This document shows positions 1,673 through 30,092 of a stretch of 43,045 nucleotides of DNA, piece after piece. Numbering within the stretch: the first letter of the stretch is position 1; each line of letters starts with the position of its first letter. Source of the DNA: an uncultured virus (IMG/VR IMGVR_UViG_2049941000_000128) (Duplodnaviria > Heunggongvirae > Uroviricota > Caudoviricetes); the IMG/VR virus record IMGVR_UViG_2049941000_000128. One strand, 5' to 3'. The position numbers and the translations under genes are program-made. Under the pieces are notes generated by a model. That model saw only the letters and a program-made list of their open reading frames with translations. It was not told where the DNA came from and made no database searches.

Positions 1673-3527
1673 CTAAATTTCTCCTGTTCCCAGTGCGGAC
1701 GAGTACACATAATCGCCGCTGGGAGCGAACTGTGCCGCATTGACACCCAGAACTGCGGAACTTCCGCTGTTGTAGGCCGTCATCGTGCTGTCTACGCACA
1801 AAGTACGGTGGTCGACGCTGATAAGGCGCGAGTCATTGTCGACATTGACCGGGGCTACGCCGGAGTAGTCGGCTCCTCCCATCCCGGCCAGGGAACTTCC
1901 ACCGATGCCGGAAATGGCAGTACCGCTGTAATCCAGAGCGGAATACGGAACCCAAGCAGACATGGAGCTGGACGGCTGGAACCAGGCCGAGTCGTACGCC
2001 GAAGCATCCAGCTTCGAGCTTACCGCGCTGTCAACGTATTGCTCGCTGGCATAACCAGCCAACGACTGATGGGCTGTCAGAAAACCACTCGGATTTCCCG
2101 TCATCGGGTAGAAACTCGACGATGCAGAAGCATCTAGCTTTCCGCTTACTGCCGAAGCTACGTCGCTTGTATAGGCAAGGTCGTCGGGCAATGAAGTCAG
2201 GAACTGCGAGCTAGCTGTCACGTCCAGCTTGCCGCTTACCGCACTATCGACATACGACTCGGTGGCGTAACTGCTCATGGCACTCACCGGCTGATATGAG
2301 GAGAGTGCAGAGCTGTCCGCCTTGCTGGAGATGCTTGAGAAGTAACCGCTCCACGCGGAGATTCCGGACACTGCTGACTCGGCGTAGCTGGAAGCCACGC
2401 TGGACACGAACGCGCTGTCGATTCCGCCAGCTATGGCGGAGCCAGAGATTCCGGTGATTTCGTTGTCCTGATTGTACTCGATAGCCGAGTAGTCGACCTT
2501 TCCGGACAAGTTAAAGTCGAAGTAACCGCGCACCCACTGCTGGGTCGCACACGTGTCAGGAACCGCGTTGATGCCACTATAGATGCGGTGGCACTGTACT
2601 TCGCCAGTTACCTCGCACGTGCCTGGAATAGTCAGTGTAAAATAAACGAAGCTGTCTTCTTCCGGCACAAGGTCGTACGAGAACTCGCACATGACCGAGT
2701 CGTTCACGGAAGTGTCGATGTCGAAGTTGCGGCTGTCCACAATCTGGTCGCCGCAGTACATGTTCACGGTGAAGGTATCATAATTGATTCCCGTTCCGTC
2801 AGGGTCTACATAGAAAGTATTCGTGAAGTGGTAGAGATGGCCGCCATGCACCTTGATGCCCTGGCCAGCCTCGGTCTCCATCGTGCCAGCCTGATAGACC
2901 GGCTTCCAAGTTGCGTCGCAGTCTTCCTCGGAGCACTTAATCCATTCAAGAAATTCGTCGTTGTCTGCCGGAGCAATGCCGATGTCGTAGGTGCGTTCAG
3001 TGNNNNNNNNNNACCTTGATGCCCTGTCCAGCCTCCGTCACCATCGTTCCGGCCTGATAGACCGGCTTCCAAGTGGCGTCGCAGTCTTCCTCGGAGCACT
3101 TGATCCATTCAAGGAATTCGTCGTTGTCCGCAGGGGCGATACCGATGTCGTAGGTGCGCTCAGTGCCAGCGATGTTCTCTTCGACGCTGATGGATCCGTC
3201 CGTAGAGACAACCCTTGTGACGGACATGCCGGAGCCAGCGTTGCCAGTACACCAGACTGGCTCGGTAGTCCACTGGAGCATGCCTTCGGAGTCATAGACC
3301 TCGACACGGTAAGCCTTGGCCTTGTCCACAATGGCACAGAAACGACCGTTGTCGTCGATAACGATCTTCTGGGGATTCACGGTGCCGTTGAAGTCGGCGT
3401 AGGTAGTAGCCGGATCGTCCGTCCCGGCAAGGAACACCATAACCCAGCCAGCCGTGAGGTTGTGGCCATCTTTGGCTTGGAGCTGGGTAGTGTCCGGATA
3501 AAGTCTTGCGTATTGAATAGCGGCCAT
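1673..3527 (-). CDS. Tail fibre protein with podophage head-binding-like N-terminus (one gene, split by duplicated segment 2850-3002/3013-3165)
   Basis: N-term DGHNLTAGWVMVFLAGTDDPATTYADF...NPQKIVIDDNGR resembles P22-type virion attachment domains; C-terminal SAVSGKLDASAS repeats; the two ORFs overlap in the duplicated stretch. Confidence 0.7.
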
Positions 3528-3537
3528 AATTTGTCCT

Positions 3538-3552
3538 CAACTATAACTATGC
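3538..3552 (-). promoter_or_regulatory. Candidate phage late promoter GCATAGTTATAGTTG
   Basis: One of four near-identical copies at minus-strand gene junctions; followed directly by SD and the ATG at 3527. Confidence 0.6.
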
Positions 3553-6001
3553 TACGATCCGCTACGGACAAAGGTCGTGTAGCCGTTGGAGTTGTAGTTA
3601 GCCGTATCGGTCGACCAAGGCGGTTTCGAGAGCCACACATTCACCAAGAAGCGGTTGTTGTAGTCCTCGTTCTCAAGGTTTTCCGGCGTGGACAGACCAT
3701 TTGCGTACCACACGTCGCAATCAGCCCAGTCACCGTCCGTGTTGCTTTCCTGGATAAGCGCGGTCACGTGGCTATTCGGATTCGCAGGGTCAAGCATCGA
3801 GTGCGGATTCTGGTTGGCTCCGCCTGGTTCGTAGTCGTACGGCATGAACAAGTAGTACGTGTCGTTGCTGCGGTAGTAGTGATGCGGCCCAATCGGATCC
3901 TCGTAGTGGTGAGTCCAGTTATTGTAGTTGTCGATGCGCGGCGGTGCCATGCCAGGGCAGTTTCCGCTGTTGCCAGTGTACTCCCAAGTGCCCATGTTCC
4001 TGTCTGCGTAGGTGGCGTACATGTACGGTTCCATGTAGGCAATATGCCACTGCGTCATTTTGATGGCGTGTGGGTCGACCGTGTCGAAACGGTTGTTCAC
4101 AATCTTCATCATGTTGAACTTGACCGCAGTGCCACGCACTTCGTAGTGCGGATGGTCTGCATCGTGGTAATACGTTATCCACAGACGGAAGTTGCCAATG
4201 AACTTGTTGTCAGACATCAGCAAATTGTAATAGAACTTGTCACCACTAGCTGCCGGGTAGAGGTCAATCTTTCCAGAAGCATAGCAGCCAACCATCTGCA
4301 AGTAGTTAAGCCTCCAGCTGAAACTGTCAAGGATATGGACGTTCTGGAAGATAATCTGCTTGTTGAGCAAGTAAGCGTTGCAGTGGTCTGTAGACATCTT
4401 GATGAGGCCGCTGAAAGAGCCACCGTACATTGTAATGCCGCAGTCGCACGGGTCGATACCTTCAGCACCGACAATGCTGATATCGGAGTCTACTGCCTGA
4501 ATGCCACCCAACCCACTGTGGTAACGCTCGATCGTTATCTTGGAGTGGTTCGCGTAGATCAGGTTGTTCGCGTGGGTGAAATTGATACGAAGGGAAGCCT
4601 GTACGTTGTAGAAGCTAGTGCTGTAGCCAGCGCAAGTAATCGTACCCGTGAAGTTTCCGTTCTTGATCGTGGTGAAGCTCGCGTCGCCCAAGTAGAGGTT
4701 TCCGGCGGTTCTGCCCTGCAAGTCCAGCGTGTAGTCGCTCCATACAACGTTGTTGAGACGGTTACGCCTTTCCAGCATAGTGCCGAGCCAACGCTGCGTG
4801 TTCTCGAACAAATCAAGGTCTGGCACCAAGTCGAACTGGATGTGGTGTCCCTGGTTGATAAGACCCGGATCCCACGAGCCAGTGCTGCGGAAGATTCCGT
4901 CACCGATGCCAGTACCGCTTATACGGACAAAGTCACTGGACGGAATGAAGAAGTTGTCCGGAATGTCAGCCGTGAGAGCCACGTTGAAGTATGCGCTGTT
5001 CGCATAGGCCGTAACGGCAGTGCCGCTGCCTTCGACAGTCTTGTCTGCAAGCGTGACGATGCTGCGGAGCACGGAGTCGGAGAAGTGGTTGTCCGTATCC
5101 ACGATAAGGATGTCGGCACCGGAATGCCAGAAGTCCTCAACGCGCTTGTACCAGTGCGAGTGCGCGGTACAGCCAGGACGGATGAACTCGATATTGCCGT
5201 ATGCGGTCTCAGGAGCTACACGGTTCAGCACTTCGATATCGCACGGCACTTGGATGGTTCCAGTCCACTGCGTCTGAGGCCCGACAGCCAAGCGCTTCGA
5301 GCACACATATACGTTGTTCAGATTGTAGTTGCCCGGTTCCAGCCAGATCGTGGTCGGCGTAATCATATTCATTGAGCCGATGACACGCGGGAAGTTGAAC
5401 AGGGCGTTGATGTTCGTAATTTCGCCGTTAATGACGCCGTACACGCTCGAACGGATGTAAGGACAGTCGGATAGAAGTAACCAACGACCGTGGTCGCTCA
5501 CATCGGATGCGATGACAACACCTCCGTCCTCCATATCGATTGCGTCCGGATCCCAGAGGTAGTCACGACGAGGGTATTCCTCAACCGTAACGACATCTGT
5601 ACACACCGTCGGATCCAAATCCTTCAGCGCCTCGATGTCCTTCACGGAGTCACGGCCAACCTGGTCTAGCTTTGCATCGATACCCATCTCATAGTTGTCG
5701 AAGTCCTCGAAGGTTCCGTCGCCGTTGTACTTCTCAAGCTTGACATCGTAAATGCCAAGCTCAGCGAAGATGGACGCGCCAAGACGGCCAGCCTCGTCGA
5801 GACGGACTGGGTTGTCCATAGACACGTAGTCCTGACCTTCAAGGCTGTAGATGTTGGCCAGTACGTTCGTGTCATGGTTGTACACGGTAAGGCGACCCCC
5901 TACCANNNNNNNNNNNNNNNNNNNNNNNNNNNNNNNNNNNNNNNNNNNNNNNNNNNNNNNNNNNNNNNNNNNNNNNNATAGCATTCCATCATCGTAGCCA
6001 T
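3552..6001 (-). CDS. Tailspike-like protein (head-binding-like N-terminus, probable beta-helix body); N gap near 5' end
   Basis: Likely start ATG at 6001 in a TAATG overlap with the portal stop; GGRLTVY...NIYS...DNPVRLDEAGR motif; DGGVVIAS...GRW motif; Asn/Ile-rich beta-strand C-half. Confidence 0.65.
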
Positions 6002-23016: not shown

Positions 23017-23229
23017 NNNNNNNNNNNNNNNNNNNNNNNNNNNNNNNNNNNNNNNNNNNNNNNNNNNNNNNNNNNNNNNNNNNNNNNNNNNNNNNNNNNN
23101 NNNNNNNNNNNNNNNNNNNNNNNNNNNNNNNNNNNNNNNNNNNNNNNNNNNGCTGGGAGTTAGCAAAATGGGTGCCAATCATTAAGCTAATTTCTCAGCC
23201 GAACCTTTAAAGTTAATGCAGAGTAAGAA

Positions 23230-26914: not shown

Positions 26915-26933
26915 GTTGCCATTCAAATTCGAC

Positions 26934-26945
26934 TTTGCTATATTT
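26934..26945 (+). promoter_or_regulatory. Candidate host-type promoter TTTGCTATATTT
   Basis: Identical 12-mer at 28883-28894; followed by hairpin GAGGGG-atg-CCCCTC and an AAGGAG SD. Confidence 0.55.
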
Positions 26946-26991
26946 TAATCAATCACCGAGGGGATGCCCCTCACAAATAAAGGAGTTAGCA

Positions 26992-27651
26992 ATGGCTAAC
27001 ATGTTAGATACCCTCCGTGCCAAGCGTGATGCTGGCGAAATCTCCACTTCTTCTACCGGTGCCAAGATTGCCGGNNNNNNNNNNNNNNNNNNNNNNNNNN
27101 NNNNNNNNNNNNNNNNNNNNNNNNNNNNNNNNNNNNNNNNNNNNNNNNNNNNNNNNNNNNNNNNNNNNNNNNNNNNNNNNNNNNNNNNNNNNNNNNNNNN
27201 NNNNNNNNAGGATACGGATCCTGAAGCGATTGGTGGTATTTTCACGGAATACGTGTCCGTCAAGAACGAAGATATGGCGAACAAGAAGTACCTTCAGATC
27301 AGCGACTGGCTTTCTGCCGCTGGTGTCAAGGACGAAAAGATGGTCGACGAAGACGATGAAGGAATTCAAGAAGCTCTTCGCACACTAATTCTTTGCGCCC
27401 AGAAGTATGCGTCCAAGAAGGAAATCACCGCTAACTGCTTCCGCAAGGCAAGCGACAAGGTTGACTCCAACGGTCGCCCTTATTACAACAACTACTTCGA
27501 CGATCCGAATGCCGATGCTTCCGACGATGACGAAGCCGAGCAGAAGACCGAGAAGAAGGAAGCTCCTAAGAAGGACGATGCCGTAGTCGGTAAGTCGCCG
27601 TACAAGACCAAGACCCAGTCCAAGAACAAGGTCGAAGACGACGAAGACTAA
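26992..27651 (+). CDS. Putative single-stranded DNA-binding protein (N gap inside)
   Basis: Follows polA; GRPYYNNYF strand; acidic tail VEDDED; own promoter, SD and terminator. Confidence 0.55.
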   Translation: MANMLDTLRAKRDAGEISTSSTGAKIAXXXXXXXXXXXXXXXXXXXXXXXXXXXXXXXXXXXXXXXXXXXXXXDTDPEAIGGIFTEYVSVKNEDMANKKYLQISDWLSAAGVKDEKMVDEDDEGIQEALRTLILCAQKYASKKEITANCFRKASDKVDSNGRPYYNNYFDDPNADASDDDEAEQKTEKKEAPKKDDAVVGKSPYKTKTQSKNKVEDDED

Positions 27652-27720: not shown

Positions 27721-28487
27721 ATGAAAACAGAAAACGAGATTTTAATTAAGGCTNNNNNNNNNNGGGGATGACCGCGACATTATCCACGCCGGTAGCCTTG
27801 ACAAACTTGTCCTTNNNNNNNNNNTGCAACATCAGTTGCATCGTGGAAGACGACGGCAGCTTTTTTCCTGTAGTCGATGGGCGTCTGGCAAATCCGCTAG
27901 ACCCGGAGAGCTACATATCTGTCTTCCGCCGTAACGAACGGTATCGCACATCCAACGCCGCAGAGTTGCTTGACAAGGTGCTGTGTACTTGCGAACATGC
28001 CTACAAGTTCCGCAAGGCTGGTTTCGAGGTTGTCACATACAGCACGACCGGTGTTCCGAAAGTTATCAAGTCGGAAGGCATCGTTCATATTTTGGGCGAC
28101 TATTCCAAGAAGAACAACTTAATTTATCCGATACTTTGCGTACAACTTAGCGATTCAACCTACGACCAGTCGAAGTCTGAGGCGTGGTCTAAGTACAAGT
28201 TCACGACTCCGGACAAGATAGATACCGTGTCGGAGTTCGACAGCAAGCCGGTGCGTGGGCATCTTGGTGCAGACGAGTGTTCAAGCACTACATATACGCT
28301 GAATGCGGACAAGTACGTGAACCAGAACATAGTCACGATACATGTTAGCGACGAATTTACAGCCAGAGGCCGTGACACGGATTACGAAGTCACATTCAGC
28401 TGCAAGGAAAAGCCAAAGAAGAGGAAGGCGGTTGCCAGAAAGACTACACCTGACTATGTTTGGCAAGACAAGGAGGATATCCAATGA
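27721..28487 (+). CDS. Hypothetical protein (interrupted by gaps and a misplaced fragment at 27764-27814)
   Basis: MKTENEILIKA start after AAGGGG; open frame resumes at 27825; the insert copies 31554-31603. Confidence 0.55.
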
Positions 28488-28876
28488 AATACGATGTAGT
28501 TACTTTGTACACATTCTCTATGTTCAGCTTGCTATCTGGTGCAGTAGTTTGTACGCAACCGACAGAGCTGGAAGAGGTTAAGCTTCGCTATGACGATATG
28601 CTGAAGATGCTCGGTAAAGAGGAACCGGTTGAGCTATTCCTTGCCGACGAGAACTACTGGCCGAACTACACTTCGGACAAGTGGCCGTGGGCTAGCAGCA
28701 GCACCGAATTTACGGAGTTTGTGCGCCAGATGGTTGTCGGTATTCCGGATTCCAAGGACAAGGACTTGCAAGTCTTTACGATGACTGCAATTCTTAACAA
28801 CGAGGAAATCGAGACGAAATACCGACTGTCGCGTGTAAAGCCTAAAGTTTTATCGCAAATGCTGTTGCCATTTTAA
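28484..28876 (+). CDS. Hypothetical protein
   Basis: MKYDVV start with GGAGG SD and ATGA overlap. Confidence 0.7.
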   Translation: MKYDVVTLYTFSMFSLLSGAVVCTQPTELEEVKLRYDDMLKMLGKEEPVELFLADENYWPNYTSDKWPWASSSTEFTEFVRQMVVGIPDSKDKDLQVFTMTAILNNEEIETKYRLSRVKPKVLSQMLLPF

Positions 28877-28882
28877 TCGCGA

Positions 28883-28894
28883 TTTGCTATATTT
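28883..28894 (+). promoter_or_regulatory. Candidate host-type promoter TTTGCTATATTT
   Basis: Second copy of the 12-mer at 26934. Confidence 0.55.
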
Positions 28895-28900
28895 AGGATA

Positions 28901-28997
28901 GGTTCACTTGTTGCCATAAGGGAACCGCACCGCACACATCAAGGGTAACTGTGCGGTGCAGAGCATGGGGATGCTCTCCTAGCCCCCGGCTGGGTTT
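28901..28997 (+). ncRNA. Candidate structured small RNA, four abutting hairpins (3' end at gap)
   Basis: GGTTC/GAACC, GCACCGCACA/TGTGCGGTGC, AGAGCAT/ATGCTCT, CCTAGCC/GGCTGGG then TTT; starts 7 nt after TATATT. Confidence 0.55.
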
Positions 28998-29009
28998 NNN
29001 NNNNNNNAG

Positions 29010-29297
29010 GTCAAAGACCGTCTGGCTAAGCTGACCGGGCAGGGTTCAATCAATGTCAAGGGCGTCCCTAGCGACAAGGTAGAGACGGCTCCAAAGAAGG
29101 ATTACCGTGCGAAGTGGTCGTCCGAGCGTGTCCGCGTGAAGATGGACGACGGTACTTGGAAGTGGCGTCTCCGGTCAGAGTGCGAGAAGGTTCCGGTTCC
29201 GGGACAGCGCGGTAAGTGGAAGTGGGCCGTGAAGTCCACAGAGGTTGAAATGTCTAATGAACCTCTGGAAGACGAGCACCAGTGCCTCAGTTATTAA
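29010..29297 (+). CDS. 5'-partial hypothetical basic protein (absent from ORF track)
   Basis: 95 open codons from the gap: VKDRLAK...VKMDDGTWKWRLRSEC...GKWKWAVK...CLSY*. Confidence 0.6.
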   Translation, partial: VKDRLAKLTGQGSINVKGVPSDKVETAPKKDYRAKWSSERVRVKMDDGTWKWRLRSECEKVPVPGQRGKWKWAVKSTEVEMSNEPLEDEHQCLSY

Positions 29298-29330
29298 AGA
29301 AGGACATCCTTACCGGATGCCTTTTTTCTT
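29296..29330. terminator. Probable terminator at convergent junction
   Basis: AAGG-a-CATCC-ttacc-GGATG-CCTT followed by a T run, preceded by an A-rich run. Confidence 0.55.
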
Positions 29331-30092
29331 TTGTTGGTAAAGTCTCTGTTTTTCTCGCCGCTTAGCGTTGTACTGTATCCAGTACTCGCGTGTAGCCGAC
29401 TTCGGTTTAGATGGGTCGTTGGCCGGGTCGTCCGCACCGTCGTATAGGCGGATATCGGATTCGCTGTAGTTACTGGTGAACCACTCGCGAAAATCCACCG
29501 GTGTTACATTGTTTTCATCGCACAGCTCCATATACCGCATATAGTCGTCGTCGACAAGTAGCACAAAAGCCTTGTGCTTGTTCCAGTATGTCTTGTAGGA
29601 ATCGAGCGATCTAGGCTCCTTGGCACTGTCCGAGTCGGTACGCAGCCGTGGAACAGACCCGTCGGCAATCATGCTGTACAGTGTAGTTCCGCCGTGATCC
29701 TTGTCGCTAATGACCTCGTTTCCGTCCATTTCGCTGTTGCGTCGCCGTATCCTTTCCATCCACGGCTCCACAATCACGTGAGAAAACTTGCTCCACGCTA
29801 CGCTACGGAGATTCTGCCATAGGTTGAAGTCGCGATTGTACTCTCCTTTTAGGACACGGCGACGGAATTCGACAAATATGGTCAGCCGCGCCTGTTGTTC
29901 AAGCTCTTCCATGTCTTCCTTCTGGTATGCATACAGGTTAGCCCAGCACAGCCATACGGATGCCGTCATATCGATAAGACGCCATAGGTTCTCCATCGGA
30001 GACAGCTCCGGGAGAAGCTTTACTGCGGTACGAACGGTGACGGCATCCGGAAACCAGACCGTACGTCCGTTCTTGAATCCCATCCTAGCCAT
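29310..30092 (-). CDS. Putative divergent sigma-70 region 2-like protein
   Basis: EDMEELEQQARLTIF......GEYNRDFNLWQNLRSVAW resembles D.EDL.Q...I.L...YD....F.T.....; GGAGG SD; basic C-terminus. Confidence 0.45.
   Translation of the reverse strand: MARMGFKNGRTVWFPDAVTVRTAVKLLPELSPMENLWRLIDMTASVWLCWANLYAYQKEDMEELEQQARLTIFVEFRRRVLKGEYNRDFNLWQNLRSVAWSKFSHVIVEPWMERIRRRNSEMDGNEVISDKDHGGTTLYSMIADGSVPRLRTDSDSAKEPRSLDSYKTYWNKHKAFVLLVDDDYMRYMELCDENNVTPVDFREWFTSNYSESDIRLYDGADDPANDPSKPKSATREYWIQYNAKRREKQRLYQQKKKGIR

Follow-up and report, generated by a model that had tools for sequence, protein, structure and literature searches.

A conserved three-hairpin RNA domain in the replication module of rumen phages, a candidate structured 5' leader with exchangeable neighbouring modules

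Introduction

What kind of RNA is made where a phage promoter motif runs directly into a row of hairpins, and the row itself runs into an assembly gap? The question is raised by positions 28883-28997 of a stretch of 43,045 nucleotides from an uncultured virus (IMG/VR record IMGVR_UViG_2049941000_000128; in what follows, the window means this whole stretch). The original prediction, made from the letters alone, saw there an independently transcribed small RNA of four hairpins, whose loops would pair two by two and so build pseudoknots or multimers. We consider here the fold of the element, its promoter, its conservation in related phages and the genes on either side, and weigh a leader of the following gene against a free RNA, a processing block and a DNA element.

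Genome setting and related loci

The window is a gapped scaffold, interrupted by 21 N runs (e.g. 222-231, 5906-5977, 23017-23151, 27075-27208 and 28998-29007). Its ORFs encode a P22-like portal, a large terminase, a major head protein, a head-closure protein, a VapE-like primase/helicase and a family A DNA polymerase, a set of genes that points to a tailed phage of about 43 kb; of the 20 sequencing runs listed for the stretch, most are labelled bovine gut metagenomes and none is recorded as RNA. The RNA element lies in the replication module, 3' of the VapE-like primase/helicase, the family A polymerase and three small genes.

Relatives were gathered via the polymerase and the protein encoded just upstream of the element, and comprise two IMG/VR contigs (L001/L003 and L002/L004/L011) and five further metagenome contigs (L005-L010). 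All share one gene order, and in each the space 3' of the gene for the upstream protein is filled by a structured RNA. The upstream protein of L005 is 92% identical to that of the window; the polymerase gave one distant match, at 29% identity. Searched alone, the upstream protein retrieved nothing from viral contigs, and its alignment returned only the two known IMG/VR contigs; two matches among genome contigs (L014 and L015) are 13-residue chance matches and were set aside. A blastn search with 28300-29400 against a phage collection gave no match. The element is flanked as follows.

28484..28876, + strand: upstream conserved gene, 130 aa, aligning at 60-63% identity to L001 and L002
29008..29297, + strand: small downstream gene, C-terminal 95 codons, the first ~34 codons being within the gap
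29305..29327, + strand: terminator-like hairpin followed by a T run, which closes the + strand unit

The upstream 130-aa protein belongs to no Pfam or PHROG family. The downstream protein has 15 relatives (P0003-P0017) of 117-140 aa, with a helical conserved N-terminal half and a Trp/Lys-rich four-strand C-terminal part carrying a WKW motif; in L005 its gene occupies 3367-3771. It gave no Pfam, PHROG or usable protein-atlas match, and its AlphaFold2 model (pLDDT 72.6) found no PDB match by Foldseek at E ≤0.001, the best being 0.5.

Fold and strand of the element

The MFE RNA fold of 28883-28997 and the sequence itself reproduce the arrangement first drawn from the letters: TATATT and, 7 nt further on, four adjacent stems without linkers at 28901-28926, 28927-28959, 28960-28977 and 28978-28994, then UUU and the N run. 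The fold is worth -48.5 kcal/mol, where 200 dinucleotide shuffles average -35.75 ± 3.6 (z -3.54) and only one of them equals it. The first three hairpins are these.

28901..28926, + strand: hairpin 1, with an invariant GGUUC/GAACC outer stem, an inner stem and a conserved apical GUUGCCAU
28927..28959, + strand: hairpin 2, a 10-bp stem with a 13-nt loop that has the conserved GG(G/A)UAAC at its end
28960..28977, + strand: hairpin 3, a 7-bp stem with an invariant CAU-GGGG-AUG top (GGGG tetraloop)

The reverse strand folds nearly equally (z -3.49), so that the fold alone gives no strand; we assign the RNA to the + strand on account of its promoter, of the direction of the genes and of G-U pairs, those of hairpins 1 and 3 and of the terminal hairpins of the relatives being compatible with the + strand only. 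This near equality of the strands, and the location in the replication module, would also suit an element acting as DNA, i.e. single-stranded hairpins of a replication origin, of a priming site or of a packaging site. We hold this to be highly improbable: read on the opposite strand, the conserved G-U pairs of the + strand would turn into A-C mismatches, the element is tightly joined to a promoter and to a ribosome-binding site, and iterons, an AT-rich tract and repeats are all absent from the sequence.

A recurrent promoter motif

The sequence TTTGCTATATTT noticed ahead of the hairpins was confirmed at 28883-28894, and belongs to the following site.

28865..28893, + strand: promoter-like site, TTGCCA (28865-28870), a 17-nt spacer and TGCTATATT (28885-28893)
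28900..28901, + strand: predicted transcription start, purines 7-8 nt past the -10, placed by spacing only

With TG ahead of the -10, TTGCCA-17-TATATT gives a match score of 10/12 for a sigma-70-type promoter, and hairpin 1 begins 7 nt later. The motif TTGCCA-N17-(TG)CTATATT is not peculiar to this site: it has two copies in the window (26916-26944 and 28865-28893), with a weaker third at 28432-28460, and two or three copies each in L002, L005 and L006 (among them L005 1033-1061 and 2452-2480, L006 1040-1068 and 2449-2477, and L002 3380-3408), every copy standing ahead of a replication-module gene. At the studied site the extended -10 is kept, with a variable spacer, in L002, L005, L006, L007, L009 and L010. 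The last codons of the upstream gene (LLPF) contain the -35 box; as this box overlaps conserved codons, only the -10 counts as independent conservation. The -10 element is absent at this site in L001 and L008, where the RNA could consequently only be made as part of the upstream transcript.

Since the element lies between two + strand genes, and read-through is expected from the promoters at 26916 and 28432, one could also see in it an intercistronic block for the transcripts of the upstream replication genes, made of RNase III or RNase E sites, of 3'-end protectors or of a weak terminator (hairpin 4 with its UUU), and setting the levels of the upstream versus the downstream gene. The GC-rich and perfect stems would be appropriate for this, as would the UUU after hairpin 4 in the window. 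However, the hairpins are located downstream of their own conserved promoter; no intrinsic terminator was called at 28978-28997, only UUU being visible there before the gap, and the relatives have no U tract after their terminal hairpin; moreover the invariant loops and a three-hairpin domain detectable by a model exceed the needs of a processing site. Such a block seems to us decidedly unlikely.

Conservation and covariation of hairpins 1-3

Clear homologues of hairpins 1-3 were found in L005, L006 and L010, each of which folds by itself into the same three hairpins plus a long fourth one. A covariance model of the three-hairpin structure (R2), built from L006 and L010 only, matched L005 with 41.2 bits (E 3.8e-8) and the window at 28901-28978 with 38.5 bits (E 1.7e-7). 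Over 82,923 bases R2 gave no further match except a doubtful one in L001 (E 0.58), a locus which has a hairpin-3-like hairpin (model E 1.6). According to R2 and another model, R1, the domain is present in a single copy per locus, with no other copy in the window or in the related records G001 and G002.

MAFFT alignments of the hairpins were out of register and R1 aligned poorly, hence pairs were counted on the R2-fitted alignment and on a hand-made register. In the former, which is fitted to the structure and holds four sequences of which L006 and L010 are near-identical, 99% of the 105 cells are standard pairs and 12 of the 27 pairs show changes on both sides. None of 500 shuffles reached any of the five measures used, and sliding the partners by 1-3 columns lowered the paired cells to 34-49%. 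By helix the counts are as follows.

Helix 1: 97% of cells paired; 8 of 10 pairs invariant; compensatory changes at 0 of 10 pairs
Helix 2: 100% of cells paired; compensatory changes at 8 of 10 pairs
Helix 3: 100% of cells paired; compensatory changes at 4 of 7 pairs

The hand-made register agrees, with 40/40 cells paired in hairpin 2 and 27/28 in hairpin 3. Homologues thus bring compensatory changes to the stems of hairpins 2 and 3, as a structured RNA would have them. The match to the homology model and the covariation within hairpins 1-3 bear out a real RNA structure, under selection and behind a credible promoter, in line with the original prediction; at the level of the sequences compared, hairpins 1-3 are a conserved RNA domain, beyond what chance would give by homology and by covariation. 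Neither an exact 39-nt pattern of the element nor a 28-nt stretch invariant in the relatives matched anything in viral contigs, and L012 and L013, which had matched a hairpin-1 pattern, are chance matches in coding sequence that have no hairpin context.

The scaffold gap and the terminal hairpin

Hairpin 4 has a different standing, as it abuts the gap.

28998..29007, no strand: scaffold gap, ten N standing for 144 nt
28978..28997, + strand: hairpin 4 as first drawn, either a local 7-bp fold or a 5' arm (~28982-28991) with the loop start GGGUUU

In all four runs examined, from three studies of which one may be the source of the stretch, contigs bridge 28997-29008 with 144 letters and are otherwise colinear with the window; the contig of one run (X5, covering 28848-28987) shows 0 differences, while flanking coding contigs differ by 2.7-4.5%. 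This colinearity across three studies indicates that the short form found in the window is a real variant and not a mis-assembly. As ten N at 28998 proved to be 144 nt in the contigs of four runs, the other 10-N runs of the window probably also conceal lengths of their own, including parts of genes. The gap was to be closed according to the first proposal; these contigs supply its length, and the downstream protein indicates what most of it contains. In its 15 relatives about 34 residues, most often beginning with MTPQEE, precede VKDRL, which is the start of the part visible in the window, so that about 100 of the 144 nt would be coding and about 44 nt would be leader.

At the place of hairpin 4, the loci L001, L002, L005, L006, L008, L009 and L010 have a GC-rich hairpin of 12-16 bp, with a lineage-specific sequence and a loop that includes UGGUU or GGUU(U) in six of the seven lineages. 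In the window, GCCCCCGGCU with GGGUUU after it is compatible with the 5' arm and loop start of such a terminal hairpin, and the ~44 nt of leader within the gap would be enough to complete the loop and to accommodate the 3' arm and a ribosome-binding site. Hairpin 4 as first drawn is thus reproduced as a local fold, but the letters also fit one arm of the long hairpin that the relatives have there. The local hairpin is probably an effect of truncation: these letters would form the 5' arm of a longer terminal hairpin that the gap interrupts.

Proposed pairing between loops

The two loop pairings proposed at the outset fare differently. The apical GUUGCC of hairpin 1 is indeed complementary to GGUAAC of loop 2 in the window, and the duplex is worth -7.2 kcal/mol; but 9% of shuffled loop-2 sequences equal it. 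In L005, L006 and L010, whose partner is GGAUAAC, the duplex requires a bulged A and is equalled by 13-59% of the shuffles. The two loops being invariant or nearly so, there is nothing to covary. The complementarity thus stands for the window, while a selected pairing does not follow from it: it lies within chance, it is weaker in three relatives and it goes without covariation. For the second pairing, between GGGG of loop 3 and the C run of loop 4, the outcome is adverse, since this C run (28984-28988) is probably engaged in the stem of the terminal hairpin.

The relatives suggest another partner for the G tract. In MFE folds it pairs with a C tract across the terminal hairpin, as UGGGGUU/AAUCCCA in L002 and GGGGU/ACCCC in L008; in L009 the pairing is altered on both sides, to UAUGGUU/AACCAUA. 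After the terminal hairpin L005 has AUUCCC and L001 CCCC; L006 and L010 offer no more than CUCU, and this CUCU pairs with their Shine-Dalgarno GAGG as well. As a pattern read from seven lineages rather than a statistical result, a pairing of the G tract with the C tract across the terminal hairpin appears to fit the relatives better than the loop-loop ideas do.

Apparent exchange of RNA modules between related phages

The element of the window may be the short form of a modular RNA located between the same two genes in related phages. The closest relatives, L005, L006 and L010, have 240-280 extra nt that are absent from the window, and the distance between the -10 and hairpin 1 grows accordingly.

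Distance from the -10 to hairpin 1: window 7 nt; L005 284 nt; L006 249 nt; L010 247 nt

The extra part contains, in this order, a pseudoknot-like module, a GNRA-capped hairpin and a 155-nt element with an invariant basal stem of 17 bp. This stem carries a T arm (GGUUCGAGUCC), an acceptor-like stem of 6-7 bp with a GCAA cap and a D-like arm; RNAalifold gives the element 53 pairs, 11 of the 53 with compensatory changes. It matches the Rfam YrlA model as follows.

L005 3045-3199, L006 3007-3161 and L010 824-977: Y-RNA-like element; positions 23-87/88 of the 114 of the model, 33.9-38.4 bits for a gathering score of 69, E 3e-5 to 6e-4

The 5' module resembles an H-type pseudoknot and is seen in L006 (~2915-2950), L010 (~733-768), L008 (~1144-1180), L005 (~2920-2953) and L009 (~410-445), for example as GCCA..UCCCAG..UGGC..UAAAUAGA..CUGGGA. 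Read by eye, both of its stems show compensatory changes from one lineage to another, while ACC and UAAAUAGAC are kept as single strands; it has no Rfam match. A different central module takes the place of hairpins 1-2 and of the Y-like element in L002 (10166-10300), L008 (~1260-1400) and L009 (~470-560), and comprises a long stem, GCUCCAGUGG...CCACUGGAGC, and after it a hairpin whose loop is GUGUUGUAGC. Nearly every lineage shares the G tract, the terminal hairpin and, adjoining the ribosome-binding site, the C/U tract; L009 has no GGGG motif of the hairpin-3 type.

The intergenic site therefore appears to exchange RNA modules. A single site of the replication module would work as a kind of swap-shop, whose stock includes fixed-loop hairpins, a module resembling a pseudoknot and a Y-RNA-like tRNA mimic, for which no Ro gene turned up nearby. 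Within this modular RNA, hairpins 1 and 2 might constitute one module with conserved loops, and hairpin 3 (GGGG loop) with the long GC-rich terminal hairpin might be the core which, in the related lineages, sits just upstream of the ribosome-binding site.

Another gain concerns the coding side: between the RNA and the usual downstream gene, L006 (3302-3520) and L010 (1118-1336) have an ORF of 72 aa with a signal peptide and a lipobox-like LVGC. This ORF may be a moron, for example a superinfection-exclusion lipoprotein.

Leader of the downstream gene or RNA acting in trans

In L001, L002, L005, L006, L009 and L010 the structured region stops 15-50 nt ahead of an ATG on the same strand, and among the relatives with visible downstream sequence no hairpin with a U-tract terminator was found between RNA and gene. 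The layout runs from promoter to start codon with no terminator in L002, L005, L006, L009 and L010, and the window is consistent with it, its start codon being within the gap. Folds of L001, L002, L006 and L010 have the Shine-Dalgarno paired with a CU-rich stretch. This arrangement gives no support to the independently transcribed small RNA of the original prediction: the RNA of the relatives runs into a ribosome-binding site and an ORF, L001 and L008 do without the -10, and the 144-nt gap would divide into coding sequence of the next gene and a short leader. As the core adjoins the ribosome-binding site in every lineage, as there is no terminator and as the predicted content of the gap agrees, we read the element as a structured leader at the 5' end of the mRNA for the small downstream gene, in a rumen phage of ~43 kb, and put the chances of this reading at about even.

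How such a leader could work can be sketched from its parts. Transcription would start at one of the several phage promoter copies (TTGCCA-N17-TGCTATATT), and the transcript would open directly with a stem-loop; a 5'-terminal stem-loop is known to protect transcripts from decay that depends on the 5' end, and a stabilising role of this kind might apply here. Further on, the G tract, the terminal hairpin and the C/U-rich tract could adopt alternative or extended pairings close to the Shine-Dalgarno, and in this way set the translation level of the downstream gene. In hairpins 1 and 2, the conserved loops would probably contact a factor, or a tertiary fold, that biases the choice between these pairings. 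If the core does gate translation, it would represent a compact new expression platform able to accept different sensor-like modules.

Several observations do not fall easily under the leader reading. A plain stabiliser or a translational operator needs no invariant loops, such as GUUGCCAU, GGAUAAC and GGGG are; in L001 and L008, which have no -10, the RNA is not necessarily at the 5' end; a clear Shine-Dalgarno sequence that could be sequestered is missing from L005; and the extra modules of the relatives look like parts of functional ncRNAs, not of a translational leader. In addition, L006 and L010 have the 72-aa lipoprotein-like ORF directly 3' of the RNA, which indicates that the RNA is not tied to the operator of one gene.

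These points leave room for a stable ncRNA acting in trans. It would either be excised from the transcript or end in part at the GC-rich terminal hairpin, which would protect its 3' end; it would use its conserved loops for binding a phage or host protein, for pairing with another RNA or for self-association from loop to loop. The stems covary around loops that do not change; close relatives have gained or lost modules, and the extra ones (the YrlA-type domain, the 17-bp basal stem) are typical ncRNA parts; the RNA keeps its place in L006 and L010 despite a different next gene, and persists in L001 and L008 where it has no promoter of its own. Being part of an operon would be no obstacle, bacterial Y RNAs themselves being found in operons beside Ro60 orthologs (PMC4201824); a recent preprint (bioRxiv 10.64898/2026.07.01.735769) presents short phage-associated RNAs able to form RNA-only multimers. 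On the other hand, no terminator follows the block in any relative and the core always adjoins the ribosome-binding site; the loops do not covary, and the complementarity of loops 1 and 2 is of the order of chance. Nor does any Ro60/TROVE protein or other RNA-binding family appear in the selected window ORFs of at least 95 aa, or Ro60/TROVE in the related records G001 and G002, the positive controls being found in 2 of 14 genomes. We consider an RNA acting in trans less probable than a leader, and entertain it tentatively. If the RNA is free, it would be a new tool of phages on the RNA metabolism of the host.

A bolder version of the same idea takes the four-hairpin block for the smallest core of a new ncRNA family, modular and of phage origin, released from the transcript and acting in trans on host RNA metabolism or defence, a core which sister phages would have fused to a Ro-less tRNA mimic resembling Y RNA and to a 5' pseudoknot-like module. 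Such an RNA could be a decoy or a scaffold for host enzymes processing tRNA or other RNAs, or could assemble with itself by its conserved loops. This version we judge unlikely. Whether leader or free RNA, the element is a defined and testable object, and the natural short and long forms are at hand for comparison.

Comparison with known RNAs

The preferred reading, that of a structured leader, has to be compared with the RNA classes already described. At gathering score, Rfam 15 gave 0 matches over the whole window and, at E ≤1, two unrelated weak matches elsewhere than at the element; 28860-28997 searched alone gave five matches of 10-18 bits, all far under their cut-offs. ARAGORN called 0 tRNA or tmRNA genes in the window and in seven related loci. 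The first description had recognised in the element neither a tRNA nor a known riboswitch, and both searches, empty at these thresholds, agree. A CRISPR-repeat mimic, a loop resembling the operator of T4 gp43 and an RNase III site were also considered, and were dropped on reading the sequences.

Bacterial Y RNAs offer the closest likeness, though to the long forms: on a long basal stem, L005, L006 and L010 display a T arm, a capped acceptor-like stem and a D-like arm, as YrlA (RF02553) does. The tRNA-like domain is confined to these three loci and YrlA has no match in the window, which is devoid of the module; the scores of the relatives are half the gathering score, and their Y-like module is embedded in a longer leader. 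In addition the basal stem that binds Ro60 (RF02553 positions 1-22 and 88-114) was not matched in the relatives, whose basal stem has another sequence. Y RNAs with tRNA-like domains are encoded next to Ro60 in bacteria and in phages (Chen et al. 2014, PMC4201824). The titles and abstracts listed for YrlA with phage, and for tRNA-like or Y RNA with bacteriophage and Ro60, held nothing on rumen phages or on the RNA described here.

The phi29 pRNA (RF00044), invoked in the original prediction for its oligomerisation by loop-loop pairing, is likewise a phage RNA of ~100-170 nt with several hairpins, and the window does have two mutually complementary loops. The model of pRNA gave no match, however; the loop complementarity is within chance, the element sits in the replication module upstream of a gene, and this phage encodes a large terminase and a family A polymerase instead of the packaging and replication set of the phi29 type.

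ROOL, GOLLD, manA and EGFOA, ornate or self-assembling RNAs associated with phages (bioRxiv 10.1101/2024.12.08.627333 and 10.64898/2026.07.01.735769), share with the element a rumen or phage setting, a conserved multi-hairpin architecture and a function still unassigned; by contrast, the element is much smaller and is joined directly to a ribosome-binding site. None of these four families was found in Rfam searches at E ≤1 for the window and the seven loci, or at E ≤10 for the element and the L006 intergenic region.

There remain the structured 5' leaders and stabilisers, of which the 5' hairpin of E. coli ompA, the stabiliser of Bacillus phage SP82 and the leader pseudoknot of T4 gene 32 are well-known cases. 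Like them, the element consists of stable stem-loops at or near the 5' end, and a ribosome-binding site follows on the same strand, in the relatives with no terminator in between. Unlike them, it has three to four hairpins with invariant loops, its make-up is modular among close relatives, two lineages have no promoter of its own for it, the downstream gene varies, and it has no similarity to a curated leader family. As far as sequences can tell, the element would be in kind a phage mRNA leader, yet one that has a new fold supported by covariation and that belongs to a modular family. Uncultured rumen phages contribute here an RNA fold strongly backed by covariation and outside all Rfam families.

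The second copy of the promoter motif in the window is itself followed by a structure, as seen from motif and fold.

26916..26972, + strand: second promoter-motif copy with a small hairpin GAGGGG-AUG-CCCCUC (26958-26972), before the next gene

This small hairpin after the 26916 copy is kept in L005 and L006.
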